Source: a virus (taxonomy: Duplodnaviria; Caudoviricetes). Taken from it: a DNA stretch of 59,275 nucleotides. Positions 5,557 to 57,693 of this stretch are shown here, piece by piece; position 1 is the first letter of the stretch; each line of letters opens with the position of its first letter. Location: positions 1-59,275 of IMG/VR virus record IMGVR_UViG_3300042860_000755; one strand, given 5' to 3'. The notes beneath the pieces were generated by a model that was not told the origin of the DNA, did no database searches, and was given only the letters and a program-made list of their open reading frames with translations. The translations under genes were made by a program, and so were the position numbers.

Positions 5557-6491
5557 TGGCTACCACATCCGGCGCAAGCAGTTTTAACCTTGACCTGACC
5601 GAGTTGGTCGAGGAGGCGTTTGAACGCGCCGGTTCAGAGTTGCGCACGGGCTATGACCTCAAAACTGCCCGACGCAGTTTAAACATCATGTTTGCCGATT
5701 GGGCGAACCGTGGCATCAACCTCTGGACGATTGAGCAGGGCACGATTGACCTTGTGCCGGGGCAGAACACCTACGCTTTGCCGACCGACACGATTGATCT
5801 TCTGGAGCATGTGATCCGCACTGGGGCCAACGTGGCAGCAACTCAGGCAGACCTGACCATCACCCGGATCAGTGTTTCCACCTACGCCACGCTGCCCAAC
5901 AAGCTCCAGCAGGCCCGACCGATCCAAGTCTGGGTCCAGCGGTACAACGGCCAGCAGAGCCCGACCGGCCTGTCCATCAGCGGCGGTGGAATCAGTGCCA
6001 CCGTCAATCAGATTACCCTCAACTCTGTGGTTGGCCTGCCCGCCACGGGGTTTATCAAGGTTGACTCTGAAATCATCAACTACGGATACATCTTAGGGAA
6101 TACCCTATACAACTGCTTCCGGGGTCAGGCCGACACCACAGCCGCATCCCACGCCAACGGGGCAGCGGTTTACTGGCAGCAGCTTCCTGCTGTCACGGTC
6201 TGGCCAACGCCGGACAACGCCCAGCAGTATCAGTTCGTGTACTGGCGTCTGCGCAGAACGCAGGATGCTGGTGGCGGTGTAAACGTCATGGATGTTCCCT
6301 TCCGGTTCATCCCGTGCATGGCGGCTGGCTTGTCCTATTACATCGCCGGGAAAATCCCTGGCGGCATGGAGCGACTGCCCATGCTGAAGGCCCAGTATGA
6401 CGAGGCTTGGCAGTTGGCCGCCGATGAAGATCGTGAGAAGGCTGCGATTCGGTTCGTGCCCCGCCAGCAGTTCATTGGGAGCACTTACTGA
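5556..6491 (+). CDS. Putative head-tail adaptor protein
   Basis: EEAFERAG...ARRSLNIMFADWANRGINLWT and later V(T)VWPTPD pattern of podovirus adaptors; morphogenesis cluster; TGATG coupling. Confidence 0.6.
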   Translation: MATTSGASSFNLDLTELVEEAFERAGSELRTGYDLKTARRSLNIMFADWANRGINLWTIEQGTIDLVPGQNTYALPTDTIDLLEHVIRTGANVAATQADLTITRISVSTYATLPNKLQQARPIQVWVQRYNGQQSPTGLSISGGGISATVNQITLNSVVGLPATGFIKVDSEIINYGYILGNTLYNCFRGQADTTAASHANGAAVYWQQLPAVTVWPTPDNAQQYQFVYWRLRRTQDAGGGVNVMDVPFRFIPCMAAGLSYYIAGKIPGGMERLPMLKAQYDEAWQLAADEDREKAAIRFVPRQQFIGSTY

Positions 6492-36500: not shown

Positions 36501-36730
36501 AAGAGTTCGCCAAGTACCTTGAAGACAACATCGGACTCCTCGCGGTCAAAGACTACGTCCGAGAAATCGAGAAGAGCATGAAAGAGCTTCGGGAAATGCG
36601 GCGAACGATCAACTCCTCACCCATGGAGCCAGATGAAAAGCGCGACATCCTGATTGATCTGGGCAGGATGGAGAACAACCTGACCGCCAACATCGGACAG
36701 GTCAAGAAGGCGATCAGCGAACTGAAATGA
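27593..36730 (+). CDS. Giant polyvalent protein (HExxH peptidase, glycosylase-like, two ART-like, ParB-like, LPD38-like domains)
   Basis: RHEALH; FGPKIG...VTMDMW...QALIW; FKRWFGDSKIV..DG.P...YHG and a second copy; EGRHR; PFFNARLQG and RIPIPFEVG. Confidence 0.75.
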   Translation: MTIRAELADGRVLEFPDGTDPGVIQATVKRMIAAPQGAQDFSQVPTAELEAMPSAPTSISDIARSLGIGVVGGAKALTDVFGAGSTASEYLGETARELQKGLTPARQAEIAKRQELEKRAAESGDTLKEVKTFLGGVAEAPLQSLVQGVGSSAPTLLASLAAIPAGAPAGLALGVGIISRAALGAAQGVGEQKGSILDEVEQAYIKAGYEKEQARELALKAQEYSQDKALQFGGAALLGALDAFTGMESGVSKAARAAASKKIAGATADKIVEGLPEKELARPGVIGSAARSAIGEAPLEGVQGGYGQYSTNLALIKEGLLDPDLAMQGVYGAAARDAAVGALTGAAFTPVEQANRMREYQMDQALRQQQDAGLAVSEEELAQRFPDVLPGGFKINREELGTETVPQGFSIMAEGRDEPLSVVDTQDEANAKLEALTKIREQEREKILKDEEKINADVKKSRDRLEYLEATEQTGTDEYQSLKAELPNLMDESAQKIKDLYERSESLSKPLTVMPFGEAQRVNEQFNVLGPDQKPVGTFKTIGEAEAVVTKAVGEDVFKQTQQNRETAKELYKTFVPQMRKFGLGDVGLNIVDRIENGAGGAYLNKLIKVSLEEANPVQTMRHEALHAMKDLGFFKPQQWKALEDRANKQWIKELKEAKYDEKQSRYDAYVDLFTKEGEQKGLSGKELDQYVNEAVVEEAIADAFGAYDKGAKPPPGMIASLYKKIKDFFASLGQAFRGAGFQSADDIFQNIERGRLKPAAEAKPVAEEKLSLRVANKVGKQLDLAKEEIDSTSISLQTGKAGVDQFKKQPVGGLPQVVQFLENRRKASGLKNLDITSEEDREELAKLMAAEAMAAINAGGNALQWYDSVIDSMMNMASLKYPELATNEDNKAALRMAIAIASQGLNVEDNLTFAMSQYDYFRQNGRFKETGSGADGAAMKSNFTLANQMIEQYGLTDLRKFLQTEFTVEELRGAGFDIGGELGDEKVTGSAIFGPKIGFGFYSNLSGNFEPVTMDMWFMRTVGRLTGKLKGFDQKKFDDQLKRFRESFSDRGEDGLYADEFKDEEIQKAMDSVEGAVNLSRVVNSVFNSDFKNNRELYDEGARKKTDLVYAAQNIIKSFDAPKDAPQNGTERRLLRDVVARTVDKVAKAYGKRIPPASLQALIWYPEQELYKALGVKLRVTSQDYAGAIKKLLMKEGYNESTIDGAAKSGPRAVQPVAGKQVQAGVAPTGKKPQAVFEPTEREEFLEKRKTEQVLKQEREAPRRKKVIFEVAPDPNNVELTERWNALPQADRLRISNNISKKIIEQAKADLDFDGRVVSQVGSYLNDTNPSFALFLEKGDAVEISKFLGYALSQDSMMVVSPKPAPGMEKVGAVVVDVRTQSPSEVDAIYQKLREISLNGEQPVGGQTTMNNKMIVLNYSGVKTEELAQLIDKKLGGTYDVQYTDVYSAFPEKKDYDYASPENDPRGKGKAVRERARALRADATKLLEEELGTKAQAPAREEKFSLKAPTSPEFKRWFGDSKIVNKDGTPMVMYHGLAKDTTDFTRKTERGAPIFLTDDPEFAERFAADSYESVARNPQKYLSKQQIDGGVKRAIAAIRKDYGKDTLGLEMIESLKTGNLNDATPEAREYIQKEFIELLPTGPHIMPMYVRAERPFDYENPSHIRKVLAELTEDAYDPADIRSGSWESIENADFQDAIQNAGFDSFYVKEHGRKNLAVYQPNQVKSATGNVGTYSLESPDVRYSLRGVAFPTAKEAQEATDAVKVPDTPEFKQYIAGSQWVDEDGKAKKFFHATTSNFFEFNDGVIYLSDTAEESAKWGRMAEDRLRERIYKALNKDEKLPFFQQAVDQAVSKDKITKAQGEKFMRDATRNIPGFDSYDLIKKEMDDVLLSLSPERMKIMPLYARAMTPFDFRNKEHVQQVINAFDYTETMDRKVGEVAKQINKQIGGAPTVNVEHILDGLKGILAQGYPKVVERPDIMRTIRKLGFDGYVVRRNRTAPMSYAVFKPEQVKSITGNDGQFSLETKDVRYSLSRVRYTPERFEKLLSESAYSNDTTTKGYMAFVDPMDFVKATSTQQEFDRVKSEQEPLDFARMSGLADEPKMFVSKRGDEWKILDHEGRHRMLAMHDAGYRSVPVYIQFYSGIEDAKTIPVKAINGQTGAINSIVMVAEAEPLSYANKDRAMKKFTGMDSDVKYSMPTLSKDTVDRIKEVAPQRYQPGWKERVIGGLKPDYTELRQRFLNRYETFANYDERNQAKIRAAGGPELLADQRAEFAALQSDLSAGVAASAMGIGDRQGGIPVYRNGFTTIDTSVKGLTEALAPLAKYDKPTSTEDTDIYSKYQFWAGWKRGRRLLREGREQVYTAADAKRAQEIENNHPEFIQVQKDLIAFNNGIVNYAVQTGVLSRERAQLYTQYADYIPFYRQLDLDKTIGPNPFGGISGVKGPKELKGGESPLGDFLENMVRNTQSMINAGMKNAAAQRATKVALEIKEVERLPGKADGLGFDVYTQLENGQLVYYRSSDSLFIEALKSLNMPDLPFMGLLSAPANVLRNLVTKDPGFMMANLLRDSLSSYVTSGQKITPIVGTMVNFGKALSAKDKNLQALFNAGIIGGYEFSQNIEQSGQSLSDDLNKKAGKDAILLRPFKSLWEGLEKGTTASDAATRMAVYERVMKETGNEAEAISRALEVMNFNRKGNSVLIRIATAALPFFNARLQGLDLFYRASTGQMNTQDAKEIKKRFWIRGMTMSALSVMYYLSVADDEEYEKQEEETKDNNWIFPIFGIRIPIPFEVGTLFKTMPERITAYLMGNDTGKELGQSTLRALANTFALNPIPQTFKPIIEAATNYNFFTMRPIVGQGMQEVEARFQVGPGTSKSAEYIGGILNLSPLKVDQVIKGYTGTIGGYVTDVVDSITSQFSDVPKASLRFEQLPVVKRFVSDPEARGSVTQFYELQRSVDTVVRTMSLLEKTARPEEFAKYLEDNIGLLAVKDYVREIEKSMKELREMRRTINSSPMEPDEKRDILIDLGRMENNLTANIGQVKKAISELK

Positions 36731-39481: not shown

Positions 39482-39684
39482 TCTCCACTCCCAGCGATCC
39501 ACACGGCAGTGCCACCAGTGTGTTCAAAGTCTTCTGTCTTCAGTCGGATGTAAGCCTGCCCGTTTACACCAGCATTTTGGACATAGCCTTGGATGCCCCA
39601 AGACTTGACCTCAGTGACCACAACTAAGCAGGCACCAAACATCTCTTTGTCAGGGTTGACTTGTACGATGTCGCCAATGTTCAT
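39478..39684 (-). CDS. Small SH3/KOW-like protein
   Basis: IGDIVQVNP...VVTEVKSWGIQGYV; GGAGG RBS. Confidence 0.6.
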   Translation of the reverse strand: MNIGDIVQVNPDKEMFGACLVVVTEVKSWGIQGYVQNAGVNGQAYIRLKTEDFEHTGGTAVWIAGSGE

Positions 39685-39881
39685 TTGATCCTCCAGAGCC
39701 TGACAGAGCCATCTTCCATTGTTCGGGTTGCGAACTCCACGTTATGCTTATCCGCGTAGCGTTTGGCGGAAACCCAAACGGTAACTCGTTTGATGTTTGC
39801 GGGCAGCACGAAGCTATCTCCAACTTCCATTTGGGCAAACGGGTAGGCGTGTGGCATCGGAATGCCTTTTTCAATCTTCAT
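39681..39881 (-). CDS. Conserved small phage protein
   Basis: IEKGIPMP..YPFAQMEVGDSF...VRLWR. Confidence 0.65.
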   Translation of the reverse strand: MKIEKGIPMPHAYPFAQMEVGDSFVLPANIKRVTVWVSAKRYADKHNVEFATRTMEDGSVRLWRIK

Positions 39882-39895
39882 TTCTTGTTTCTCCT

Positions 39896-40084
39896 TCATT
39901 TGACCCTCCGCATTGCCATCCACTCAGGCTCTTTGGACTCAAGCGGTGGCGGGGCCTTTCGCAACTCACTGGGCGGCACCCAGCCGTACTTGCGCCATAA
40001 CTTCTGAACATCAGCGCCTGATGTCCACTTGAATTCTGGATGCCCAACAGGAATCCATGGGTCTGATCGTTTAGCTGCCATCAT
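39896..40084 (-). CDS. Hypothetical protein
   Basis: DVQKLWRKYGWVPPSE; AAGGAG RBS. Confidence 0.55.
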   Translation of the reverse strand: MMAAKRSDPWIPVGHPEFKWTSGADVQKLWRKYGWVPPSELRKAPPPLESKEPEWMAMRRVK

Positions 40085-40301
40085 CACTCTCCTTCTCAAA
40101 AAAAATATCTGCGATTGGCATACTTGCGGATATCCAAAAGCCAGACTTGTTTAAACTCATTCCCCTTGCAATCATTTCTTCTGTCGTCAGGCATCGACGA
40201 TCATGTCCATGATTTCCGACCCGATGTTTGTCAAAGGCAAAGTTGCTGTTGAAATACTGACTACACCCCCGGCACTGATTCTTTTGTCCCGTCAGATTCA
40301 T
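40071..40301 (-). CDS. Zn-finger protein (FDxHR type)
   Basis: CRGC..FNS..AFDKHR...C. Confidence 0.65.
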   Translation of the reverse strand: MNLTGQKNQCRGCSQYFNSNFAFDKHRVGNHGHDRRCLTTEEMIARGMSLNKSGFWISASMPIADIFFEKESDDGS

Positions 40302-40602: not shown

Positions 40603-40978
40603 TTTGGCTCCAGTTTTCAAAGTCAAGTACGACAGCATCAAACTTCTCTTGGGCATCTGAGTTGCCGTTCAGTTCAGAGCGAGACTGAATGCCACATCGT
40701 TTGCAAAGATTTCTTGCGGCCATTTCTTCATTGATGGCGCTCATGAAAGCCTGGAAGCTTTGCTGTTTACACAGTAGCGCAGCCTTTTGCACGCGGTTTG
40801 TGTATGGCGTTGGCGATTCGTCGTCCTGTATGCGTACAAGGGCACAGGCATAACGAGCGCCAACAAAATCCCGAAGAAGCTCTTCCGGTATTTCATCGGG
40901 GTGCAGGCACAGGGTCAGGACGTAGCCCGTCCTGTCCTGTTTCAATGCAATCTTCCTGGCTTCAAACTGGAGCGCCAT
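40586..40978 (-). CDS. Hypothetical protein
   Basis: 130-aa coupled ORF. Confidence 0.6.
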   Translation of the reverse strand: MALQFEARKIALKQDRTGYVLTLCLHPDEIPEELLRDFVGARYACALVRIQDDESPTPYTNRVQKAALLCKQQSFQAFMSAINEEMAARNLCKRCGIQSRSELNGNSDAQEKFDAVVLDFENWSQNADPF

Positions 40979-41504
40979 TGATCATCTCCGTCAACTCAGA
41001 CACTTGCTGCTTGAGCCCGTTGTTCTCAACGCGCAGACTTGTGTTCTCGCTGATGAGGTCGCGCATCATCTTCTTCTGGTCTGCGTCACGGGCCTGGGCG
41101 ACCTTCATGACATGATTTAAACGGGTGGACACATCACCAAGTCGGCGCTGCATCAAATCCATTTCGTACCAGATGAAGTCAGGGGCGACACCCTCAACAA
41201 TCACCTCCTGCTTCGGCTGCACCTTCCCGGCCAGAAACTCTTCGTTTTCCTTGTTCCGAATCTCAGCCGCAGTGGGCTCGATTGGCGCTTCTTTCAGTGC
41301 CTCACGCTTGCGCTTGGCGACATCTCTCATGGCCTCCGAGAGCGTTGGATTGGGTTTTGCAACCCCGATCCGACTCCGAATGTGGTAGTACTGAGTTTGG
41401 GTGCCGCCAGTTTGCTGGACAAACTCCCTCCACGAAGCAGTCTTATTTTTCCTGAGCCACTTCTTCAGGATCGAGATTCTTTCGTTGGTTGAACGAGAGC
41501 GCAT
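40962..41504 (-). CDS. Hypothetical protein (N-terminal HTH-like, C-terminal coiled coil)
   Basis: AAGGAG RBS; heptad C-terminus. Confidence 0.55.
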   Translation of the reverse strand: MRSRSTNERISILKKWLRKNKTASWREFVQQTGGTQTQYYHIRSRIGVAKPNPTLSEAMRDVAKRKREALKEAPIEPTAAEIRNKENEEFLAGKVQPKQEVIVEGVAPDFIWYEMDLMQRRLGDVSTRLNHVMKVAQARDADQKKMMRDLISENTSLRVENNGLKQQVSELTEMINGAPV

Positions 41505-43834: not shown

Positions 43835-44284
43835 ATGTCAGCGAGCGATGATCATAGTACAAGCACAGAAGGTTTGCAAGCGATATCACAAATTATTTTG
43901 GGGGAGCCTGCGTCCAAGGCGAACAGCCGCAAGATCGTGCGCTTCGGCAATGTCAGCCGATTGATCAAGTCCTCGAAGGCGCTGTCCTACGCAGAGATGT
44001 TTAAACAGCAATGCTCGCCGCTGGCGGTGTTGATGAAGGGCGATCTGCGGGTGACGATGTGGATTCACTACGCCTCACGCAGACCAGACTTGGATGAGTC
44101 TCTAGTCCTTGATCTGATGCAGGGGCTGATCTATGAGAACGACCGTCAGGTCAAAGAGAAGCACATCTACTGGAACCTTGACCCTGGGAATCCCCGCACA
44201 GAGATCATCGTGGAGTGCATCCCTTCTGTCGTGCCAGAAAAAAAGCCCCGCACGGGGCGGGGCAAGAGAAGGGCAACTGCATGA
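43835..44284 (+). CDS. rusA: RusA-like Holliday junction resolvase
   Basis: GEPASKAN, RRPDLD, LDLMQG..YENDRQV, PRTEI. Confidence 0.8.
   Translation: MSASDDHSTSTEGLQAISQIILGEPASKANSRKIVRFGNVSRLIKSSKALSYAEMFKQQCSPLAVLMKGDLRVTMWIHYASRRPDLDESLVLDLMQGLIYENDRQVKEKHIYWNLDPGNPRTEIIVECIPSVVPEKKPRTGRGKRRATA
44238..44263 (-). terminator. Minus-strand intrinsic terminator inside the rusA 3' end
   Basis: GCCCCGC/GCGGGGC stem preceded by A7 on the plus strand. Confidence 0.5.
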
Positions 44285-45679: not shown

Positions 45680-45916
45680 ATGGAGGCAAGAATGGAACAT
45701 ACCGACATGCTCGTCATCGACCGAGAGAAGTCGTTGAACCTCATTGGCAAAGCGTACATTGACATGAAGAATGGTGACGCTGCGGGGTTCATTGTGACCT
45801 TGCGCGAAGGGAAGGTCAGTCTTGCCACCTTTGACATGGATGAAGTCACGGTGATTGGTTTGATGATCGGACTCATCGAGTCTTCGATTAAAGATGAAGG
45901 GGGAAACAGACACTAG
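45680..45916 (+). CDS. Hypothetical protein
   Basis: Start is 45680 or 45692 (GGAGG RBS). Confidence 0.5.
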   Translation: MEARMEHTDMLVIDREKSLNLIGKAYIDMKNGDAAGFIVTLREGKVSLATFDMDEVTVIGLMIGLIESSIKDEGGNRH

Positions 45917-46031
45917 CCTGAGCGTTGATCACCTCATGCCAATTCCGCGCCGTGCCATACGCCCATGGAGCGTCAGGTAGGTAAGGAATAGTCTGGAGTA
46001 CCCCACCCCCCCACAAACGGAAGAGAGAAAC

Positions 46032-46289
46032 ATGAAAAACGAACAATTCACAAGCGTTGCTGAAGCCATCATTGATGCAGCGCACATCCTTGCCAACAAC
46101 AGGGCCACCACGCCAGAGGGCGCAACGATGGGTGGCCTTGAGCTTCATGGCATGACCATCGCAACGTCAAATGAGCGTATCGCGCAGGCCATTGATGGAC
46201 TCGCTGCCCAGTTTGAAGAGTTGGCCCATCAAATGAGCCGCATCGCAGATGTCATCGAGGGAGACCAAAATGCGCGACTACAAGGCTGA
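46032..46289 (+). CDS. Hypothetical protein
   Basis: Helical 85-aa ORF. Confidence 0.5.
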   Translation: MKNEQFTSVAEAIIDAAHILANNRATTPEGATMGGLELHGMTIATSNERIAQAIDGLAAQFEELAHQMSRIADVIEGDQNARLQG

Positions 46290-46518
46290 ATACCAGAACT
46301 ATGACGGCACCCCCGCAGTCAAGAAGAAGCGGGCGCAGAGAAACAAGGCCCGCAGGATGCTGGAGAGAGAGGGAGTCGTCACCAAAGGCGACGGCAAGGA
46401 TGTGGATCACATCACCCCTCTCGGGAAGGGTGGTAAGACTACCCGCAGCAACTTGCGCGTCAAGTCCGCCACCGCCAACAGATCGTTTAAACGGAAATCT
46501 GATGGCAGCCAAAAATGA
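46270..46518 (+). CDS. Small HNH endonuclease-like protein
   Basis: GDGKDVDHITPL.KGG...NLRV...NRS. Confidence 0.75.
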   Translation: MRDYKAEYQNYDGTPAVKKKRAQRNKARRMLEREGVVTKGDGKDVDHITPLGKGGKTTRSNLRVKSATANRSFKRKSDGSQK

Positions 46519-48194
46519 TTGAAGAGATTCTGCGTCAGCAGTACTTCGACAACACCGCACGGGTCGTATGCCCGTTCTGCTTGCCAGAGCGCAAGAAGAA
46601 AAACATCAAAGACATGACGCTGACCCGCAAGCCTGACGGGGCAGTCCTCTATCACTGCCATCACTGCGCCGCCATGGGATCGGTGCAACCCCCAAAACAG
46701 GAGAGAAAATTGTCAGCCGTACCCAACCCAGTGATCACAAGCGAGAGGCTTGAGGACAGGCATTACGCTTACTTGGAAAGCAGAGGTATCAGTCGCCAGA
46801 CAGCAGACAGAGCAAAGCTGTTCAGTGCAAACAAGTGGTTCGCCAAACTCGGCAGGGCCACAGAGTCAATCGGGTTCCCCTACTTCAGAAACGGGGCATT
46901 GGTCGCAGCCAAGTACCGATCAATCGAAGAGAAAGACTTCACGCAAGAAGGCGGCGGGGCTCATGATTTCTTCGGCCTTGAACACATCGAGAAGGGCCAG
47001 CCCATCATCATCGTCGAGGGTGAGATGGATTGCCTATCCGCCATGGAGGCAGGTTTAAACAACGTGCTTAGTGTTCCCGCCGGAGCGCCCATCAAGGTGG
47101 CAGATGGCAAGGTTCTCCCATCAGAAGATAAACGCTTCGCCTACGTCTGGAACGCCAGAGACATCATCGACGCAGCCCCATACGTCGTGCTTGCAACAGA
47201 CCAAGACACCCCCGGCCAAGCACTCGCAGAAGAGTTGGCAAGGCGCATCGGAAAAGAAAAGTGTCGCGTAGCCAAGTTCGCCAAAAAGGATTTGAACGAA
47301 GTCCTGCTCGATCACCCCTCTCAGGTAGCTACGGTCATCAATGCCGCCGAGCCGTATCCGATCAGCGGCATCAGCGAGGCAGACAAGTTTAAACAGTCAA
47401 TTGAAGACCTCTACGCCAAGGGCAACGGACGTGGCATCAGCACTGGCTATCAGTCCCTGGATGAAATCTACACGGTCGGGCCTGGGCAGTTGACGGTCGT
47501 CACTGGCTACCCTTCATCGGGCAAGTCCAACTTCGTCGATCAGTTGATGGTCAACCTCGCCCGCAAAAACGATTGGAAGTTCGTTGTCTGCTCGTTTGAG
47601 AACCAGCCCGAAACCCACATTGTCAGGCTGATGGAAATCTACACGGGAATGCGTTTCCATGATGGCAGAGACAGGATGAATGCGGAGACAAAAGACAAAG
47701 CGTTTAAATGGGTCAATGATCACTTCATCTTCATGGACACAAACGGTGAAGAGCCAAGCACATTGGAGTCGATACTTGAGCGAGCCAAGGCATCGGTCAA
47801 ACGCATGGGTGTTCGGGGCATGGTGATTGACCCGTACAACTACATTGACATGAGCCGCAAGGATACGGCTGAGACTGAGGCTATCAGCAACATGCTGACC
47901 AAGGTGAGGAAGTTTTGCATGGCGCACGAAGTCCATTGCTGGTTCGTGGCGCATCCAGCCAAGATGACGCGATCAGGGAATGATCAGCCCCGCCCAGATG
48001 GCATGAGCATCAGCGGGTCTATGGCATGGTGGGCAAAGACGGACTGCGGCATCACAGTCCACAGGGGACAGGGCGCAGTCGTCGAGATAGCGGTCTGGAA
48101 GTGCCGCTACAGATGGATTGGTTCTCAGGGTGAGACCAGCCTGCTCTACAACAAGACCGCAGGCATTTACACGGAAAATTTGGATGCATTCTGA
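46515..48194 (+). CDS. Primase-helicase (T7 gp4/Twinkle-like)
   Basis: Zn finger CPFC/CHHC, TOPRIM IIVEGEMD and DQD, Walker A GYPSSGKS, VIDPY, VAHP. Confidence 0.92.
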   Translation: MIEEILRQQYFDNTARVVCPFCLPERKKKNIKDMTLTRKPDGAVLYHCHHCAAMGSVQPPKQERKLSAVPNPVITSERLEDRHYAYLESRGISRQTADRAKLFSANKWFAKLGRATESIGFPYFRNGALVAAKYRSIEEKDFTQEGGGAHDFFGLEHIEKGQPIIIVEGEMDCLSAMEAGLNNVLSVPAGAPIKVADGKVLPSEDKRFAYVWNARDIIDAAPYVVLATDQDTPGQALAEELARRIGKEKCRVAKFAKKDLNEVLLDHPSQVATVINAAEPYPISGISEADKFKQSIEDLYAKGNGRGISTGYQSLDEIYTVGPGQLTVVTGYPSSGKSNFVDQLMVNLARKNDWKFVVCSFENQPETHIVRLMEIYTGMRFHDGRDRMNAETKDKAFKWVNDHFIFMDTNGEEPSTLESILERAKASVKRMGVRGMVIDPYNYIDMSRKDTAETEAISNMLTKVRKFCMAHEVHCWFVAHPAKMTRSGNDQPRPDGMSISGSMAWWAKTDCGITVHRGQGAVVEIAVWKCRYRWIGSQGETSLLYNKTAGIYTENLDAF

Positions 48195-48310
48195 CGGGGT
48201 GTTTTTGTTTTCTACCCGTCCGGGCGTAAGGTGCGAGTGGCCCGTTAAAGATAACCGCATCAGTTTGTCGGGCGTGTTTTTTCACTTTCCTCGCTGACAG
48301 GACAAACAGT

Positions 48311-48339
48311 AAGGGGGGCTCATGGCCCCCCTTTCTTTA
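48311..48339. terminator. Terminator between convergent operons
   Basis: GGGGGGC-TCATG-GCCCCCC followed by TTTCTTT. Confidence 0.6.
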
Positions 48340-48501
48340 TTCAGCCTGGGTGATGGTTTCAACCTCCCATTCGGCGTTGTCGGTGTAATGGTCTTTTTCA
48401 AGTTGATCCCATGCCATGTCTTCTGCCTTTTCTTTTGTTTCGGCCTCGACATGTACCACGACAAAACTGGTGCGGCGATATTCAATCTCAAACTTTTTCA
48501 T
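48337..48501 (-). CDS. Small acidic protein (54 aa, not in ORF track)
   Basis: MKKFEIEYRRTSFVVVHVEAETKEKAEDMAW...; AGGAG RBS; stops at the terminator. Confidence 0.65.
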   Translation of the reverse strand: MKKFEIEYRRTSFVVVHVEAETKEKAEDMAWDQLEKDHYTDNAEWEVETITQAE

Positions 48502-48621
48502 TTAAACGCTCCTGATAAATGGTGCGGGTTCATCCGCGTCTGATGGTTGGAAGGGTGCAGGACGGGGTAGTTGCCCCGGCTTGTCCAGCGGGTTGGGAAA
48601 CGGTGGAAAGGGCCAGTTCAT
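48502..48621 (-). CDS. Small Pro-rich protein
   Basis: MNWPFPPFPNP... Confidence 0.45.
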   Translation of the reverse strand: MNWPFPPFPNPLDKPGQLPRPAPFQPSDADEPAPFIRSV

Positions 48622-48623
48622 GG

Positions 48624-48770
48624 TCAGAACCAGAGATAGAACCCGTGTAGGATTCCGATGGGAAAGAATATTGCCCCGGCCAGCAGGAAACCCCACATTC
48701 CCTCCGCGAAGCAGGTGAATACATGGGTCAACCATGCAAGGAAACACAAGGCCACAAAAAGGTATGCCAT
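48624..48770 (-). CDS. Small two-TM membrane protein (not in ORF track)
   Basis: MAYLFVALCFLAWLTHVFTC...FFPIGILHGFYLWF; CCGGAG RBS. Confidence 0.65.
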   Translation of the reverse strand: MAYLFVALCFLAWLTHVFTCFAEGMWGFLLAGAIFFPIGILHGFYLWF

Positions 48771-48784
48771 CTCATCTCTCCGGT

Positions 48785-49018
48785 TTAAACGCGCCGCGCA
48801 TAGTTGACTGCGCTGCGCAGGTTGTTGAATGTATTGGCCCTCAGTGGGCCGTCTGTCGTCTTGATGTAGACCGAGAATGCCAGCCCATCAAAGGCGATGT
48901 ATCGCTCCCCGTGGCCCAGGTATCGCTCATCATCGACTAGGTCAACGATGCCGTCGAGGGCGTATGCTTGTTTTAAAAACACGGGGTGCCGGTTTGTCAC
49001 TGCTCTGATGGTTCTCAT
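48785..49018 (-). CDS. Hypothetical protein
   Basis: ATGA-coupled to the vWA gene. Confidence 0.55.
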   Translation of the reverse strand: MRTIRAVTNRHPVFLKQAYALDGIVDLVDDERYLGHGERYIAFDGLAFSVYIKTTDGPLRANTFNNLRSAVNYARRV

Positions 49019-50589
49019 GCGGCCAGCTTGATCTGCTTGAACGACACTGTGCCCAGGTCGCCAACGTCAGTGATCCGCACCGACTGCGGGTAGACATTTG
49101 CAACGTCCTGCTCGATGCCGATGCCGATGGTGGTGATCCCCAGGTTATTGCCTGCCAAGCATTGCTGCCGCACTGCCATAGGCTTGCCGATGCCATCGGT
49201 GATGACAAAGCAAATCTTGCGCTGCTCGGGCCGACTGAGCAGCAGCTTGTGGGCATACCGCACCGCAAAGTAGTCGTTGGTTGACCCGCCGTTGCAAATG
49301 CTGTTGATCTTTGCCGCAGCCTTGAGCGAGTGTTCTCCCCAGGGCTTGACCACTGAAGTGAACGAACCAAAGGCAAGGACGCAGGTCTCGACCTGGGCCT
49401 TTTGCAAAGTATCCAGCAGCGCCCGGGTTGCCATAGCAGCCTGGACGATGCGGTTGCTCATGTCGTACCTTTTATTTTTCTTGCCGTCATCAAACATCGA
49501 GCCCGAAACATCGAGACAGATCACCACCGCAGAGTCGATCCCCTCGACCGCATGGCGGCGCTGGAACAGCTTGTCAGTGGTGCCGATCTTGTGCAGGGCC
49601 GAGACATTGATGGAGCCAGACCGACGGTTGCGCTGGAAGTCCTCGCGCCCAGAGTTGTCGAACAGGCGCTTGACCTCATACCGCAGCCGCGCAGGCACCG
49701 CCAGTTGATCGTTGAGCCAGTGATGCCGCAGGTGATGATTAGGCTCAGTCAGCGTGGCATTCTCAGACCATCCCCCGATGCCAGCCTTGCCCTCGGGCAT
49801 ATTGATGGAGGGTTCGACCTCGACTGCCTCGTCAGATTTTTTAGGAGCCCGAGCAGAGCCGGGGCTTTTGTGCGGGTTGTCGTCGAGCCTGGAGCCCTTA
49901 TCGGCCTTGCCTGCACCCTCACCCTTGCCGTCATCAGATGGAGCCTCTGAGGGGCTTTTGGGAGCCTTGGCGGGGCTGTTTTTGGGCAGAGCCTGGAGTT
50001 GATCCATGATCCACTCAGCCAGGGCCAGCGTGTCCTTGGATGAGCGGCAGGCATCAATCCGCTGAGTCGCGCCGATGATGACGGGCTCCAGGCCAGCAGG
50101 CACCGGGACATGGGTGTTCAGATGCCGCCGCAGGTAGACCGCGAAGATAAACGGGTATTGAGCAGGGTCTGCCCAATCAGTCACCGTGGCATTGGCCTCG
50201 CCAACGATCTGATCCAGCAGCGCCGTCAGCAGCCCATCGATGTTGCCGGTCAGCTTGGCATCGATCCCGGTGTGCTCGATCCATGCATCCTCGACCGCAT
50301 TGTGCAGTTGGTTGACGTACTGGTCACCATGATTGACGTTGAAGTTGGTATATTTTTGATGCAGCAGTTCATGTACCACAAACCCGACATAGCGCTGAAC
50401 GTCAATGTCGTAAAGCACTGCATCATCAGCAACGTCAGCGAAGTAAATGTCGCCGTCCTTGTTGGTGCCTGCGGTCTGAATGCCTGCATGCCAGTTGATG
50501 GTTCTGATGGCTGCACCAAACTCGGCTGCAACCTTGCGCGTCAAATTTTCAACTGCCTGTTTAAACTGGAACCCGTGATAGCGTTTCAT
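49015..50589 (-). CDS. CobT-like vWA protein with N-terminal HExxH domain
   Basis: VHELLH...NAVED; MIDAS DVSGS, GGST, VITDG. Confidence 0.8.
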   Translation of the reverse strand: MKRYHGFQFKQAVENLTRKVAAEFGAAIRTINWHAGIQTAGTNKDGDIYFADVADDAVLYDIDVQRYVGFVVHELLHQKYTNFNVNHGDQYVNQLHNAVEDAWIEHTGIDAKLTGNIDGLLTALLDQIVGEANATVTDWADPAQYPFIFAVYLRRHLNTHVPVPAGLEPVIIGATQRIDACRSSKDTLALAEWIMDQLQALPKNSPAKAPKSPSEAPSDDGKGEGAGKADKGSRLDDNPHKSPGSARAPKKSDEAVEVEPSINMPEGKAGIGGWSENATLTEPNHHLRHHWLNDQLAVPARLRYEVKRLFDNSGREDFQRNRRSGSINVSALHKIGTTDKLFQRRHAVEGIDSAVVICLDVSGSMFDDGKKNKRYDMSNRIVQAAMATRALLDTLQKAQVETCVLAFGSFTSVVKPWGEHSLKAAAKINSICNGGSTNDYFAVRYAHKLLLSRPEQRKICFVITDGIGKPMAVRQQCLAGNNLGITTIGIGIEQDVANVYPQSVRITDVGDLGTVSFKQIKLAA

Positions 50590-53624: not shown

Positions 53625-53855
53625 TCAGGTAGCGGTTGCAACAGCGTAGAAGTCATGCTGGCCCTCGCATCCGACATGGGTCATGCGGTCAGGGTGAAAC
53701 CCGTGGATGGATTGAATGGCGGCGCGGTTGGCGTTATGTGCGCCGTGGTCATAGGGCACGGTGCGGGTGCATCCCGTGGTGATGCACTTGACGGTGATGG
53801 TTGAACCCCGGGAGTCAGTGGCGGGGTTGTGGCGGGTTTTGTAAAGGGTGATCAT
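53625..53855 (-). CDS. Hypothetical early protein
   Basis: TRHNPATDSRGSTITVK; CCGGAG RBS. Confidence 0.6.
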   Translation of the reverse strand: MITLYKTRHNPATDSRGSTITVKCITTGCTRTVPYDHGAHNANRAAIQSIHGFHPDRMTHVGCEGQHDFYAVATAT

Positions 53856-53875
53856 GGTTGCTCTCCGGGTTGGTT

Positions 53876-53927
53876 GCATGAGACCCCCTGCCGGGGGTTT
53901 CGCCTATTCAAGGCTCATCAGTCATGC
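53876..53927 (-). ncRNA. Type I hammerhead ribozyme
   Basis: Minus strand reads GCAUGA CUGAUGA GCCU-UGAAU-AGGC GAAA CCCCC-GGCA-GGGGG UC^UCAUGC: complete catalytic core, three paired stems, GUC cleavage triplet. Confidence 0.9.
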
Positions 53928-54083
53928 TGTTTTGACGGGGTAATTGCACATTTCATAGAACAGGGCTGCGTCAGCCTGGGCCAGCAGGATTTCAGCGAAG
54001 GGGTGTTTGCGGCTGTAGGCCATCACGGCGGCATGGTTGGCTGCGGTAGGGTTGGCGCGGTAGCGGTTAAGCAGTGCTTTCAT
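53922..54083 (-). CDS. First gene of the early operon
   Basis: MKALLNRYRANP...YSRKHPFA; AACCGGAGAACGAACC-ATG. Confidence 0.6.
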   Translation of the reverse strand: MKALLNRYRANPTAANHAAVMAYSRKHPFAEILLAQADAALFYEMCNYPVKTA

Positions 54084-54361
54084 GGTTCGTTCTCCGGTTA
54101 AGTGCGGGATGCACTCCAATGCCCAGACGGGCATCAGGCTGCAAACAGCAACTCCAATGTGGGAGTAGATGTTTATCTACCGTCGTGATTGACGGTGCAG
54201 GGCGTGTCCCCTGCCTGTATTGAACCCGTTGCCGGGGAAAGCCTGAAAGCTTTTTACCTCCACAGACCGACCTTATCGCGGGCCGTTCGCACTAGACTCG
54301 ATCGTCTCTGCCTCGCTAGCACTATCAAGCAATCACTTGATATCACTAGGGCATGGAACGG

Positions 54362-54390
54362 ACTGTAGCGGGTTTAAACCAGCCTGTCAA
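54362..54390 (-). promoter_or_regulatory. Leftward (early) sigma70 promoter
   Basis: Minus strand TTGACA-17 bp-TACAGT with GTTTAAAC in the spacer. Confidence 0.7.
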
Positions 54391-54419
54391 CAACCCCACG
54401 ATTTAGTCGGGTATTAGAC

Positions 54420-54445
54420 CCGCAAGGGGTTGCCGCAAGGGGTTG
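54420..54445. repeat. 13-bp tandem repeat
   Basis: CCGCAAGGGGTTG x2. Confidence 0.8.
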
Positions 54446-54582
54446 CGGTTGGCATATATATGTGGCCCAAGGATTCAAGGAATGGGTTACAGGGCGCTGG
54501 AAGGGGTTCAGGCGGGGTAGGTATCAACCAGACCAATACGGCGGCAGGAAGGCATGGTTGCAATGAAAAAGTTTTACTTTAG

Positions 54583-54787
54583 TTATCCACAATGGTGTGG
54601 ACAAGTCAAAGTTATCCACAGCCTGTGGACAAGTTTTGTAGTACTTGAGTATTGCAACCAGGGTTTAAACGGGCGATCGTGGCCTGGGTAAGGGGTAGGG
54701 TAGGGTAAGTGGTTTTTGACGCGAAACTTACAACTTCTGTGGATAAGTTGTGGATGACGGTTGGAGTTATTCACAGCCTGTGGATAA
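54583..54787. promoter_or_regulatory. Cluster of eight DnaA boxes
   Basis: TTATCCACA 54583, 54612; TGTGGATAA 54738, 54779; TTATTCACA 54767; TGTGGACAA 54596, 54624; TGTGGATGA 54749. Confidence 0.85.
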
Positions 54788-54844
54788 CCTGATAGACTGC
54801 GATGCGAACGGTGGTTCAGGTTTAAACGGTGAAGGGGTGATGCG

Positions 54845-55540
54845 ATGGGCATGGGGAATGATCAGATGCGGGGCAATGGCAGGGCGACAAAAGATGATCT
54901 ACTGCGAAGGCTGGAGGAAGTGATGCTCGATGGTGATGGAAACCAGAACGATCAAGAGCCCGGACTGAGCGAAGCGGAGCGGTTAGCCAGAGACGCAGTT
55001 CCCCCAAAGCGTAGGGTAGACGGAGAGATGGTCGGAACACCCAGAGCAAAGCCAATGACAAGCTCCATGATGGAGTTCGCCAAAGGGCTTATAGAGGGAA
55101 AGACACAGTTAGAGGCGTACCAGAACGCATACCCCAATGGGAAGGCAACAGATAGGACACTGAAGACAGCAGCATGGAAGCTAGCGCAAGACCCAAGGAT
55201 ACAAAGGATGCTGCAAGAGCATTGGGGTCAGACAGTGGAAGCGCTGACGGATGATGCAGTGGCGGTGAAACGATATGTGATCAAGTCGCTGCTGGAGTTG
55301 AGCAAAGAAGCAAAGCAGGAGGGCTCCAAACTCAAGGCACTGGAGTTGATGGGCAAGACAGTGGGAATGTTTAAACAGACTGTGCAAGAGGATGACGACA
55401 GTGTGACCGCAGACCAACTGAAGCAAGAGCTTGCGAAGCACATGCGTCTAGTGGGCAATGTGCGTAGAGTGAGCAAGGCGCAGATCATTGAACTGCCCTC
55501 TACGGTCATCAGTGAGCCGGTGGAGCGAGGACAGGTTTAA
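54845..55540 (+). CDS. Terminase small subunit (start uncertain)
   Basis: FAKGLIEGKTQLEAYQNAY...AAWKL..PRI HTH and KLKALELMGKTVGMF; upstream of TerL. Confidence 0.75.
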   Translation: MGMGNDQMRGNGRATKDDLLRRLEEVMLDGDGNQNDQEPGLSEAERLARDAVPPKRRVDGEMVGTPRAKPMTSSMMEFAKGLIEGKTQLEAYQNAYPNGKATDRTLKTAAWKLAQDPRIQRMLQEHWGQTVEALTDDAVAVKRYVIKSLLELSKEAKQEGSKLKALELMGKTVGMFKQTVQEDDDSVTADQLKQELAKHMRLVGNVRRVSKAQIIELPSTVISEPVERGQV

Positions 55541-55735
55541 ACGGGGGAGTGGCATCAGTGATGGCTGGGAGGGAGGGAGAGACACCCCCACCCCCCGCTT
55601 TGGCAGATGGGTCCCCCTCCTCGCCTTACGCTCGATTCCACTCATCCGATCATCCCCAAACACAAACGTTCGCACCCACCCCCATCCATTTCCAATTCCC
55701 AACCCCCACCCCTATATATTTTTGAAATTACTGAC

Positions 55736-55779
55736 TTGCAAACGTTCGCTATTGTGTTTAAACTTTGTTTGGTTTAAAC
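55736..55779 (+). promoter_or_regulatory. Putative sigma70 promoter with two GTTTAAAC sites
   Basis: TTGCAA-17 bp-TAAACT; GTTTAAAC at 55756 overlapping the -10 and at 55772. Confidence 0.55.
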
Positions 55780-55794
55780 GCGGATTGTTTAAGG

Positions 55795-55986
55795 ATGATT
55801 GATTACGCCCACCCCACGATGATGGCTGAGAAGGCTTTGAGGGAGCTTCATGAGGCGATGCTTGCTCGCAGGTTTGAGGATGCGCGTCAGGCGGCTTTGC
55901 GGTGCATGGTTGAGTGCAAGATTGCGTACCACAGCATTCGGGTGATGGAAGAGGAATATGTCAGCAAAGCATCAACTCGTGCTTGA
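55795..55986 (+). CDS. Hypothetical protein
   Basis: MIDYAHPTMMAEKAL; helical. Confidence 0.55.
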   Translation: MIDYAHPTMMAEKALRELHEAMLARRFEDARQAALRCMVECKIAYHSIRVMEEEYVSKASTRA

Positions 55987-56188
55987 TTTCATCCGGGCGT
56001 ACATTCGGCTTCATGGGATGTCTCCTTCTTACCAGACGATTGCTTCTGGTGTGGGGATGAAGTCAAAGGCGAATATTCACCGGATCATCCATAAGTTGCA
56101 GGATGAGGGGCTTTTGACTATTCGCCCCTACAAGTTCAATTCGATCAAGTTGATTGACCGCAGTGCTCGTGAGGTGTCTGCTCTATGA
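55958..56188 (+). CDS. LexA-like winged-helix DNA-binding domain protein (no peptidase domain)
   Basis: VLDFIRAYIRLHGMSPSYQTIASGVGMKSKANIHRIIHKLQDEG. Confidence 0.75.
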   Translation: MSAKHQLVLDFIRAYIRLHGMSPSYQTIASGVGMKSKANIHRIIHKLQDEGLLTIRPYKFNSIKLIDRSAREVSAL

Positions 56189-57693
56189 CGTTGCTGACCC
56201 GGCAGGAGATTGATGACTATGAGGGGATGATTCCTCTGGTTGGGCTGGAGCAGCGCAGGAAGATACAGAAGCTTTTGGAGTTGGACAAGCGGGAGAGGTG
56301 CCGGGAGTCCTTCATCTTCTTCGTGTCGCAGATGTGGCCTGTGTTTATTTCGGGCAAGCATCATCAGATCATGGCTGATGCTTTTGAGAGGGTGGCCAGG
56401 GGTGAGTTGAAGAGGTTGATCATCAACATGCCGCCCCGGCATACGAAGTCGGAGTTTGCTTCTTACCTGCTCCCGGCTTGGTTTCTTGGGATGTTTCCTG
56501 AGAAGAAGATCATCCAGACCGCCCACACCGCAGAATTGGCTGTTGGTTTTGGCCGGAAGGTGAGGAACTTGGTCTCGTCCAACGAGTACCAGAAGGTCTT
56601 TCAGACGGAACTTTCTTCTGATTCCAAGGCTGCGGGGCGGTGGAATACCTCTGTTGGGGGTGATTACTTCGCCATCGGTGTTGGCGGTGCTGTCACGGGT
56701 AAGGGCGCTGATCTTTTGATCATTGACGACCCGCATTCTGAGCAGGAAGCCAAGCAAAACAACCCCGCCGTCTACCACGGGGTCTATGAATGGTACACAT
56801 CCGGCCCCCGGCAGCGTCTTCAGCCTGGGGGTTCAATCATTATTGTGATGACGCGGTGGTCAAAAATAGATTTGACCGGCCAAGTCATGAAAAATTCGGA
56901 AAAAGACGGCACAGATGCGTGGGAAGTCATCGAATTTCCCGCAATTTTGCCCTCCGGAACCCCTCTTTGGCCCGGATTTTGGAAAAAAGAGGAGCTTGAA
57001 GCCATCAGGGCTGAGATTCCAGTGTCCAAATGGAATGCTCAGTACCAACAAAACCCCACATCCGAAGAAGGCGCTATCGTCAAGCGCGAGCAATGGCAAA
57101 TTTGGGAGTCAGAAATGCCCCCGCCATGCGAATACATCATCCAGTCCTGGGATACAGCCTTTGAAAAACACAACCGCGCAGACTACTCTGCATGTACTAC
57201 GTGGGGAGTGTTTAAACATCCCGATTCCAAGGGCAACTACAAGACAAACATCATCCTTCTTGACGCCTTCAAGGACCGAATGGAGTTTCCTGAACTCAAG
57301 GCCAAGGCCATTGAGATGTACAAGGAGTGGAACCCAGACACCCTGATCGTTGAAAAGAGGGCCGCTGGTGCCCCTTTGATCTACGAGCTTCGCCAAACCG
57401 GCATCCCTCTTTCAGAGTACACACCAAGCAAGGGACAGGATAAGATTGCGCGTGTAAACGCAATTTCAGACCTGTTTGCGTCTGGCGTGGTCTGGTGTCC
57501 AGATACCCGCTGGGCCGATGAACTCATGGAAGAGATGGCCGCGTTCCCTAATGGCGACCATGATGACTTGGTTGACTCGGCGTCACAGGCTCTTTTGAGG
57601 TTCAGGCAGGGCGGATTCATCCCAATCGACTCGGATGAGCCCGAAGAGACGATTTATTTTCGCGGTCGCAAAGATCGCTTCTATACCGTGTGA
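56185..57693 (+). CDS. Terminase large subunit
   Basis: INMPPRHTKS, LLIIDDP, MTRW, AQYQQNP, QSWDTA, HDDLVD. Confidence 0.95.
   Translation: MTLLTRQEIDDYEGMIPLVGLEQRRKIQKLLELDKRERCRESFIFFVSQMWPVFISGKHHQIMADAFERVARGELKRLIINMPPRHTKSEFASYLLPAWFLGMFPEKKIIQTAHTAELAVGFGRKVRNLVSSNEYQKVFQTELSSDSKAAGRWNTSVGGDYFAIGVGGAVTGKGADLLIIDDPHSEQEAKQNNPAVYHGVYEWYTSGPRQRLQPGGSIIIVMTRWSKIDLTGQVMKNSEKDGTDAWEVIEFPAILPSGTPLWPGFWKKEELEAIRAEIPVSKWNAQYQQNPTSEEGAIVKREQWQIWESEMPPPCEYIIQSWDTAFEKHNRADYSACTTWGVFKHPDSKGNYKTNIILLDAFKDRMEFPELKAKAIEMYKEWNPDTLIVEKRAAGAPLIYELRQTGIPLSEYTPSKGQDKIARVNAISDLFASGVVWCPDTRWADELMEEMAAFPNGDHDDLVDSASQALLRFRQGGFIPIDSDEPEETIYFRGRKDRFYTV

Follow-up and report, generated by a model that had tools for sequence, protein, structure and literature searches.

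The 59275-bp stretch of DNA analysed here (the window) is an entire IMG/VR virus record, IMGVR_UViG_3300042860_000755, which is linear, has a CheckV completeness of 97% and is a near-complete lake podophage genome. It contains a gene-free control region of 710 bp (54135-54844) with an array of eight 9-mers that match the DnaA box, the site bound by domain IV of the bacterial initiator DnaA. This array is the focus of our analysis. Since the window is the whole virus record, there is one array per genome. The control region was delimited with lists of open reading frames (ORFs), PHROG and Pfam scans and the conserved blocks of a nine-row alignment of close relatives (A1), and three spurious-looking ORFs within it have no Pfam match. 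It separates a leftward early block, whose first small ORF (70 aa; 53922-54134, - strand) has no family by PHROG and Pfam scans, from a rightward late block that is opened by TerS (54845-55540, + strand; phrog_51, E 5.8e-10; present in all 31 relatives tested). The only replisome enzyme recognised is a T7 gp4-type primase-helicase (46515-48194, + strand; phrog_239, E 1e-88; Toprim and DnaB_C domains). The first-pass annotation, which was made from the letters alone, had named TerS and a primase-helicase and had reported neither a polymerase nor an initiator; the family searches agree with it on these genes.

A search for TTATCCACA with at most one mismatch gave eight matches at 54583-54787. 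Four are perfect copies of TTATCCACA, namely box 1 (54583-54591, +), box 3 (54612-54620, +), box 5 (54738-54746, -) and box 8 (54779-54787, -). The other four have one mismatch each: boxes 2 and 4, both TTGTCCACA (54596-54604 and 54624-54632, -), box 6, TCATCCACA (54749-54757, -), and box 7, TTATTCACA (54767-54775, +). The boxes form two groups separated by 105 nt. The first-pass annotation had described eight boxes, mostly in closely spaced inverted pairs, and a repeated 23-mer. The array and the 23-mer hold up, the latter being AGTTATYCACAGCCTGTGGAYAA, found at 54610-54632 and 54765-54787 in copies that are 91% alike. The inverted arrangement applies to three of the four close pairs (spacers of 4, 3 and 3 nt), whereas boxes 5 and 6 are in tandem (54738/54749, spacer of 2 nt). 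The whole window has 12 box matches, eight of them in these 205 bp and four elsewhere. The total is ordinary, as shuffled sequences average 9.1, but the clustering is not. Among 300 first-order Markov simulations, the fullest 205-bp span contained one match in 234 runs, two in 65 and three in a single run, against the eight observed, and the 9-mers are thus clustered beyond chance. Several of the window boxes have the flanks GTTATCCACAG, which are also seen on both perfect boxes of Escherichia coli oriC and which we take to be of the R1/R4 type, R1 and R4 being names of oriC boxes. The strict E. coli rule TT(A/T)TNCACA, as quoted in bioRxiv 10.1101/866236, fits five of the eight window boxes.

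Conservation of the array was examined in relatives that were found through TerL (56185-57693, +; phrog_38, E 1e-109). A TerL search of the viral collection returned 369 relatives, of which the best 80 were kept (76-100% identity). At least 1.9 kb of DNA upstream of TerL was available at 37 of these 80 loci, and the other 43 were dropped because they had too little. The array, whose conservation the first-pass annotation had proposed to check, is kept at 34 of the 37 loci as 4-10 boxes located 900-2200 nt upstream of TerL. The remaining three have fewer than four boxes (two each in L021 and L022, three in L051). Summed over the 36 distinct loci, the zone between 900 and 2200 nt upstream of TerL amounts to 46 kb and contains 205 boxes, compared with 8 matches to a reversed control word, while the remainder of the loci holds 102 boxes in 226 kb compared with 37 for the control. 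Perfect copies make up 92 of the 205 zone boxes. Positions 4 and 8 are invariant and the changes fall mainly at position 3 (A to G, 33 boxes), position 5 (24) and position 1 (22); the G at position 3 (33/205) lies outside the E. coli rule given above. Box matches outside the arrays show a different pattern of variation. In the nine-row alignment, identity to the window is 0.89 in box columns, 0.50 in the short spacers and 0.61 in the flanks; the Mann-Whitney p value of 1e-10 is descriptive only because the columns are not independent. A single array, with only lone matches scattered elsewhere, is present in each of G001, G002 and G003, which are complete or near-complete relatives. By these comparisons, the array is under selection.

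The layout of the boxes is far more variable than the word itself. The window and the 37 loci together give 28 distinct architectures with 2-10 boxes, which means that the word is kept and the layout is not; lineages differ in how many boxes they have and in the order and spacing of these. All orientations are seen, with spacers of 0 to 8 nt and more, and one locus (L069) is all-tandem. Some regularities are nevertheless seen. The first box is '+' in 21 and the last box '-' in 26 of the 28 architectures, where '+ before -' orderings number 159 and the reverse 66. Head-to-head '+ -' pairs, spaced by 3, 4 or 6 nt, are the unit seen most often, and co-oriented '-' boxes frequently come after them. 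The distance from the end of the array to the start of TerS was 58-109 nt in the four lineages read. At one locus (L064:2655-2760), four copies of a 16-nt palindromic word, GGTCTTATAGAAGACT, lie between a '+++' and a '----' group in an iteron-like layout.

The stretch is present in lake metagenome runs of 24 studies dating from 2020 to 2025, and no RNA run is listed among the sequencing runs that contain it. Four other lake metagenomes were read through Logan contigs, which show neither depth gradients nor molecule ends. Their contigs tile 53864-54482, 54453-54746 and 54717-55752, and another run covers 54558-55752. The array is unchanged in three of the four lake runs. The fourth has variant letters at 54592, 54593, 54595, 54645-54648, 54747 and 54761, all of which lie between boxes.

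The early side of the array is formed by an AT-rich tract next to box 1 (54555-54582), a candidate unwinding element. The AT-rich run that had been noticed at 54562-54582 is real: in a ranking of the genome by nearest-neighbour energy, the 25-mer from 54562 comes third among the least stable 25-mers and the 100-mer at 54554 fourth among the 100-mers. To the left of the array, the adjoining 25 nt have an AT content of 64% or more in 21 of the 28 architectures (mean 0.65, background 0.48), so that an AT-rich, easily melted element adjoins the boxes in relatives also. Boxes 1-4 are enclosed by a 37-nt imperfect inverted repeat with arms at 54555-54591 and 54624-54660 that are 70% complementary and AT-rich in their outer parts. 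The AT-rich part of its right arm (54633-54660) has four consecutive NTN triplets at 54635-54646, as found by eye. The two box groups are separated by short G-rich repeats, GGGTAAGGGGTAGGGTAGGGTAAGTGG (54686-54713, +), which occur in six of the nine rows of the alignment. This run has four tracts of three or more G and is quadruplex-like. The palindrome GTTTAAAC had been described as interleaved with the boxes. Copies do lie at 54663 and 54820, but the word is not regional. No 8-mer is more frequent in the genome: 29 copies are present where 0.63 are expected, in genes and gaps alike (for example at 3928, 22898, 46485, 53305, 54372, 54663, 54820, 55756 and 55772). There are 35, 30 and 18 copies in G001, G002 and G003, compared with 1-2 copies of a reversed control word, and one copy in HTVC027P. 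Several copies in the window sit 14-22 nt 5' of start codons.

Promoter-like sites are found on both sides of the array. The leftward (early) site, TTGACA-17-TACAGT (54362-54390, -), came from the consensus scan, and its TTGACAGG core is invariant in the nine-row alignment. The rightward (late, TerS) site reads TTCACA-17-TAGACT followed by GCGAACGG at 54804-54811 (54770-54811, +) and came from the same scan, with TGCGAACGGTG invariant in the same alignment. Its -35 hexamer TTCACA lies inside box 7, its 17-nt spacer contains box 8 and its -10 hexamer is at 54793-54798, so that boxes 7 and 8 cover the -35 and the spacer of the predicted promoter. The consensus scan for leftward and rightward sites is near chance (2 found, 1.0 expected), and we therefore infer both promoters from conservation. 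A TANNNT hexamer followed by GCGAAC is present in 16 of the 28 architectures. The -10-like TANNNT lies 2-5 nt after the last box in 11 architectures (exactly 5 nt in nine of them) and 16-17 nt past it in three, where an in-box TGGACA can act as the -35. Conservation thus suggests that the right end of the array incorporates the late promoter. The leftward site is followed, just downstream, by an inverted repeat CTAGCACTATCAAG / CTTGATATCACTAG (54316-54349) that was found by a repeat scan and is conserved in the nine-row alignment; it is a candidate operator or leader hairpin. The predicted leader of the leftward transcript, about 220 nt long (54135-54360, -), is strongly conserved. It includes this inverted repeat, a GC hairpin GCAGGGCGTGTCCCCTGC and a block ACAGACCGACCTTATCGCGGGCCGTTCGC, has no Rfam match and could be an operator or a structured leader RNA. 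Rfam at gathering scores gave no family and ARAGORN gave no tRNA.

The reader of the 9-mers is very probably host DnaA. The first-pass annotation had taken the 9-mers to be host DnaA sites, and this claim is well supported because the boxes are clustered, because they are conserved and their spacers are not, because they tolerate change at positions 3 and 5, because they have the GTTATCCACAG flanks and because no DnaA-like domain was found in the phage: PF08299 (the C-terminal domain of DnaA) is absent from the searched genomes G000-G003. The occurrence of boxes in any orientation and at any spacing fits a reader of single asymmetric 9-mers. The DnaA box is close to universal. Among the matches listed, the palindromic pair TTATCCACAGNCTGTGGATAA is seen in more than 120 stretches of bacterial genomes that belong to many phyla. 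The neighbouring proteins change far more than the word does. TerS drifts to 41-52% identity and a 76-aa winged-helix protein, encoded between TerS and TerL, drifts to 44-65%, while the 9-mer stays at the universal DnaA consensus. The winged-helix protein (55958-56188, +) has a DNA-binding domain of the LexA type (PF01726, E 2.4e-9), overlaps the start of TerL and is present in all 31 relatives tested at 44-100% identity. It also has a weak PHROG match to a replication-initiator family.

The genes of the window leave the start of replication to be explained. The rightward block leaves the end of the window and picks up again at base 1, as seen in the PHROG and Pfam scans. It encodes TerS, the winged-helix protein, TerL, portal, capsid and SU10-type adaptors, and further on a tail fibre, a T4-type lysozyme, ejection proteins and a polyvalent protein of 3045 aa. 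The latter (27593-36730) has an ADP-ribosyltransferase domain (PF18760) and an LPD38 domain and is presumably injected. The leftward block runs from 54134 down to 36714 and encodes small ORFs without a family, a MoxR-type ATPase, a VWA protein, a PD-(D/E)XK exonuclease, a Sak annealing protein and an HNH endonuclease. The primase-helicase and a RusA-like ORF (43835-44284) are on the + strand among these leftward genes. The primase-helicase has no domain besides Toprim and DnaB_C. A comparison of 61 window ORFs with PHROGs gave no polymerase and no Rep-type initiator, in a search in which models for family-B and family-C polymerases were not run, and PF00476 (PolA) is absent from G000-G004. No iterons were found in the window, including the gaps 48150-49050, 39550-40300, 45850-46560 and 55540-56000, where they were specifically sought. 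One ORF (40962-41504, -, 180 aa) was considered as YabA, a DnaA- and DnaN-binding protein that controls initiation; the match (E 0.009, 17 bits against a cut-off of 30) is probable coiled-coil noise and was rejected. The replication-gene content of the clade and of the distant relatives described next is the main argument for a DnaA-dependent origin. The window TerL is 50-59% identical to those of phages 023Pt_psg01 and DSL-LC04 and of the Pelagibacter phages HTVC027P and HTVC023P, and 48% identical to those of three cyanophages. PolA is present in three of four distant cultured relatives (HTVC027P, 023Pt_psg01 and DSL-LC04, not MinM2), and none of these four has a box cluster or a perfect box. 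PolA is described as a core gene of HTVC023P-type phages in two reports on that group (PMC9599517; bioRxiv 10.1101/2019.12.14.876532).

Other features of the window bear less directly on the array. A DNA search of 53800-55600 against the phage collection gave no match. A search for the host, with TerL against 185,579 species genomes, returned a single 1.8-kb contig from a methanogen bin, a result without information on the host. The T4-type lysozyme, which has a single domain, gives no more than a hint of a Gram-negative host. The gap between TerS and the winged-helix gene (55540-55957) is repeat-rich, with at least three C-rich words ACCCCCACCCC, two copies of CAAACGTTCGC and a 16-nt tandem bearing two copies of GTTTAAAC. 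Only two 100-mers of the genome are less stable than the one at 55707. Lake assemblies are interrupted in this gap, where an 18-nt deletion variant (55765 to 55784) is also found, and many related contigs begin 450-510 nt upstream of TerL. The gap is a candidate pac site.

Similar arrays are found in other phages. Head-to-head pairs with 2-5 nt spacers occur in at least 119 viral stretches, 23 of which have six or more boxes. Five such contigs were tested, and their TerL is related to that of the window only in G004 and not in G005-G008. In G007, which is complete and has PolA, and in G008, the space from the minor head protein gene to the scaffold gene is occupied by 7-9 boxes. The nine boxes of G006, all perfect, lie in a gap between divergent genes, next to RusA and a dNMP kinase. 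The arrays of G006, G007 and G008 begin with '+' and end with '- -' before the downstream gene. Arrays of 7-9 boxes in viral contigs without a related TerL lie at L331:4000-4117, L332:4008-4183 and L330:4013-4403. Their presence in unrelated phages means that phage-borne arrays are recurrent and are not always located where an origin would be expected.

We propose that the array is part of a replication origin that is coupled to a gate on the late promoter, and we give this joint reading a probability of about 40%. Its two halves are not mutually exclusive. The three functions offered by the first-pass annotation, an origin, a DnaA sink and a sensor of the host cell cycle, all stay candidates. 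Whether DnaA gates the late promoter is, on its own, an even bet; that the module is a replication origin is a tentative proposal with somewhat less than even odds. From the sequence comparisons, the clade probably uses host DnaA either to start replication or to time its late genes. The module would have three parts between the divergent blocks: the AT-rich tract on the early side, 4-10 boxes in the middle and the TerS promoter on the late side. Host DnaA would fill the array and open the AT-rich tract, aided by the negative supercoiling that would arise between two promoters firing outwards. The gp4-type primase-helicase of the phage would load itself at the opened tract and host Pol III would copy the phage DNA, while the Sak annealing protein, the exonuclease and RusA may drive a later, recombination-dependent phase of replication. 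DnaA occupancy would also cover the late promoter, and late transcription would then track the level of free DnaA. This scheme can be extended to a copy-number timer, in which DnaA fires the origin at the AT side and shuts the late promoter at the other side. Each new genome would add eight high-affinity boxes until free DnaA collapses, which would stop host initiation and free the late genes only once replication is under way. The head-to-head pairs may recycle ADP-DnaA locally, as in the DARS sites of E. coli, for repeated origin firing in the lytic cycle. We consider the timer unlikely.

Several observations weigh against an origin coupled to a promoter gate. The basal unwinding module of bacterial origins is described as a box that is separated by no more than 16 bp from three or more NAN triplets (PMC8287927), or as a co-oriented box pair with trios nearby (PMC10721633). 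Beside the sole co-oriented pair of the window (boxes 5 and 6), three NAN triplets in a row were not found. The four triplets at 54635-54646 lie 14 nt from box 3 with an inverted box between, and the three triplets on the left side lie 25 nt from a correctly oriented box. The AT-rich 13-mers of E. coli oriC face the TGTGG end of the nearest perfect box, whereas the tract abuts the TTAT end of box 1. GC skew, which is a poor guide in phages, stays positive to either side of the array without a switch at 54.5 kb, and the cumulative skew gives no usable origin signal. Nearly all boxes of the window and its relatives are of the high-affinity type in a search that was limited to one mismatch, and oriC has many weak DnaA sites. 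The description of the region as oriC-like, which the first-pass annotation had offered, thus stands as far as the density of boxes and the adjoining AT-rich tract are concerned and does not extend to the unwinding module, the skew or the affinity of the boxes. Box order and orientation differ even between close lineages, and a layout that changes in this way fits a site-counting role better than a precise origin complex. Two unrelated phages that have their own polymerase (T5 and G007) have their arrays away from recognised replication genes, T5 in its injection-stop and first-step-transfer region and G007, like G008, between minor head and scaffold genes. An initiator may also be hidden among the many small early ORFs. 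On the promoter side, consensus scans are at chance level overall, and the rule of a -10 hexamer with GCGAAC fails in 12 of the 28 architectures. Four of these 12 have TATAAT 2 nt past the last box (L052, L074) or TATACT 12 nt past it (L025, L059).

It is possible, although doubtful, that the array serves the late promoter only. DnaA bound to the array would then repress or activate the operon of TerS and the structural genes with no origin involved. In its timer form, DnaA would shut the promoter on the single incoming genome until the multiplying boxes titrate it and the late genes are turned on. The overlap of the last boxes with the -35 and spacer of a conserved promoter-like site speaks for such a gate, as do the fixed orientation of the promoter-proximal box (26/28), the short distance of 58-109 nt to TerS and the flexible box number and layout, which are expected of an occupancy device. 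The arrays of 7-9 boxes in the unrelated G007 and G008 also end with '- -' just upstream of scaffold, a late gene. However, known DnaA-regulated promoters use one or two boxes, a number that is exceeded by the eight to ten boxes found here. The promoter calls are predictions, and in L069 the boxes stop about 65 nt upstream of the -10-like hexamer. A gate alone would also leave the conserved AT-rich tract on its far side unexplained, and it leaves open how replication starts without a polymerase or initiator. Titration itself has a precedent, as extra DnaA boxes are reported to raise or derepress dnaA expression (Hansen 1987, cited in PMC8203912).

Manipulation of the host DnaA pool is an unlikely explanation. 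The array could act as a multicopy sink that resembles datA and blocks further host initiation, or it could regenerate ATP-DnaA in the manner of DARS. High-affinity boxes in flexible number and layout suit a sink, and arrays are present in phages with their own replication enzymes. The '+ -' pairs followed by '-' boxes match the orientation pattern of E. coli DARS1, and the head-to-head pair of DARS is reported to be essential for the release of ADP from DnaA (PMC6868365). The spacings are different, being 3-6 and 0-5 nt in the phages and 5 and 3 bp in DARS. A pure sink needs neither a fixed position next to the late promoter nor a fixed orientation of the last box, and the benefit to the phage is conjectural.

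Reading by a phage protein is quite improbable. The winged-helix protein or TerS, the latter at a pac site, would recognise 9-mers that only resemble DnaA boxes. Both candidates are core proteins encoded next to the array in all 31 relatives, three of the four pairs are palindromic like the operators of dimeric regulators, and two groups of repeats around a centre recall the pac site of P1. Against this, the word is the exact universal DnaA consensus with a DnaA-like tolerance at positions 3 and 5, and it stays fixed while the two proteins drift to 41-65% identity. Its use in any orientation and spacing, including the all-tandem L069, argues for a monomer-type reader, and the same word is arrayed in unrelated phages and in bacteria.

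A role in anchoring or packaging the DNA, in which membrane-bound DnaA would hold this stretch during entry or DnaA would serve the terminase as an architectural factor, is highly improbable. Its basis is phage T5, where a preprint reports eight boxes in pairs 3 bp apart in the injection-stop region of 25 T5-like phages and proposes membrane-bound DnaA as the injection stop (Davison, bioRxiv 10.1101/866236). The array here is directly upstream of terS, and its four pairs have similar spacers (4, 3, 2 and 3 nt). However, the T5 role is itself a proposal. The T5 pairs are in tandem, within inverted repeats of the terminal repeat, and form two groups about 3 kb apart, while three of the four pairs here are inverted and all lie within 205 bp. 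The end repeats of G001 and G002 are at arbitrary places relative to the array, and the terS-terL gap at 55540-55957 is a better candidate for pac. Finally, an assembly chimera with host origin DNA, which the first-pass annotation had named as a way in which its reading could fall, can be dismissed, as 34 of 37 related contigs, from many samples, have the array in the same position and independent contigs from four other lake metagenomes span 53864-55752 as continuous sequence.

An origin coupled to a late-promoter gate would be of interest beyond this phage. To our knowledge, every lytic phage that has been studied well either brings a protein that binds its origin or initiates replication from transcripts. 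If a lytic clade borrowed the initiator of its host, or read it as a cue for late genes, this would represent a new coupling between phage and host cell cycle. With 369 TerL relatives in the viral collection, the clade is common. The arrays of T5 and of unrelated viral contigs suggest a general strategy of phages that has received very little study. Because the DnaA box is so widely shared, binding and promoter tests are possible with E. coli DnaA before the host is known.

T5 is among the closest known systems. Both are lytic phages that keep about eight consensus or near-consensus boxes outside coding DNA, as two groups of close pairs that go with inverted repeats, and relatives of both conserve the boxes. 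Our own scan of T5 (NC_005859) located a co-oriented pair at 6182/6194 (+) with a single box at 6121, and pairs at 9437/9449 and 9498/9510 (-). The first of these groups sits between two annotated divergent promoters. Besides the arrangement of the pairs, T5 differs in having its own replication genes, with origins that the preprint places near the centre of the DNA (10.1101/866236), while no polymerase or initiator is recognised here, and the array here includes a predicted late promoter. The DARS1 and DARS2 sites share a core in which a head-to-head TTATCCACA...TGTGGATAA pair is followed by a co-oriented box. In E. coli DARS1 the core is TTATCCACt-N5-TGTGGATAA-N3-TGTGtATtA, or '+ - -'. The phage arrays reuse '+ -' and often '+ - -': the window has three '+ -' pairs, and relatives have '+ - -' or '+ - + - - -'. 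Unlike DARS, the phage arrays have at least two such units together with an AT-rich tract and a predicted promoter. The likeness to oriC lies in the dense cluster of boxes, the adjoining tract that melts easily, the position between outward-reading genes and the GTTATCCACAG flanks, which are those of the strongest E. coli boxes.

Other precedents concern the use that phages and plasmids make of host regulators. DnaA-regulated promoters have DnaA sites at or in the promoter, and in phage lambda DnaA is reported to stimulate replication through transcription of the origin region (PMC8203912). Lambda leans on the host initiator without using it as its own initiator, and it encodes the initiator O (PMC3640518). 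In P1 oriR and plasmid iteron origins, DnaA boxes are described as flanking the origin core (PMC4980987), which may be compared with the L064 layout. Phages of Alphaproteobacteria are reported to have sites for CtrA, a host cell-cycle regulator, in their control regions (PMC9437464), although that case involves another regulator and another host group. The points that go beyond the first-pass annotation are the published eight-box array of T5, a predicted late promoter in the end of the array, a pair orientation like that of DARS1 and the genome-wide occurrence of GTTTAAAC.

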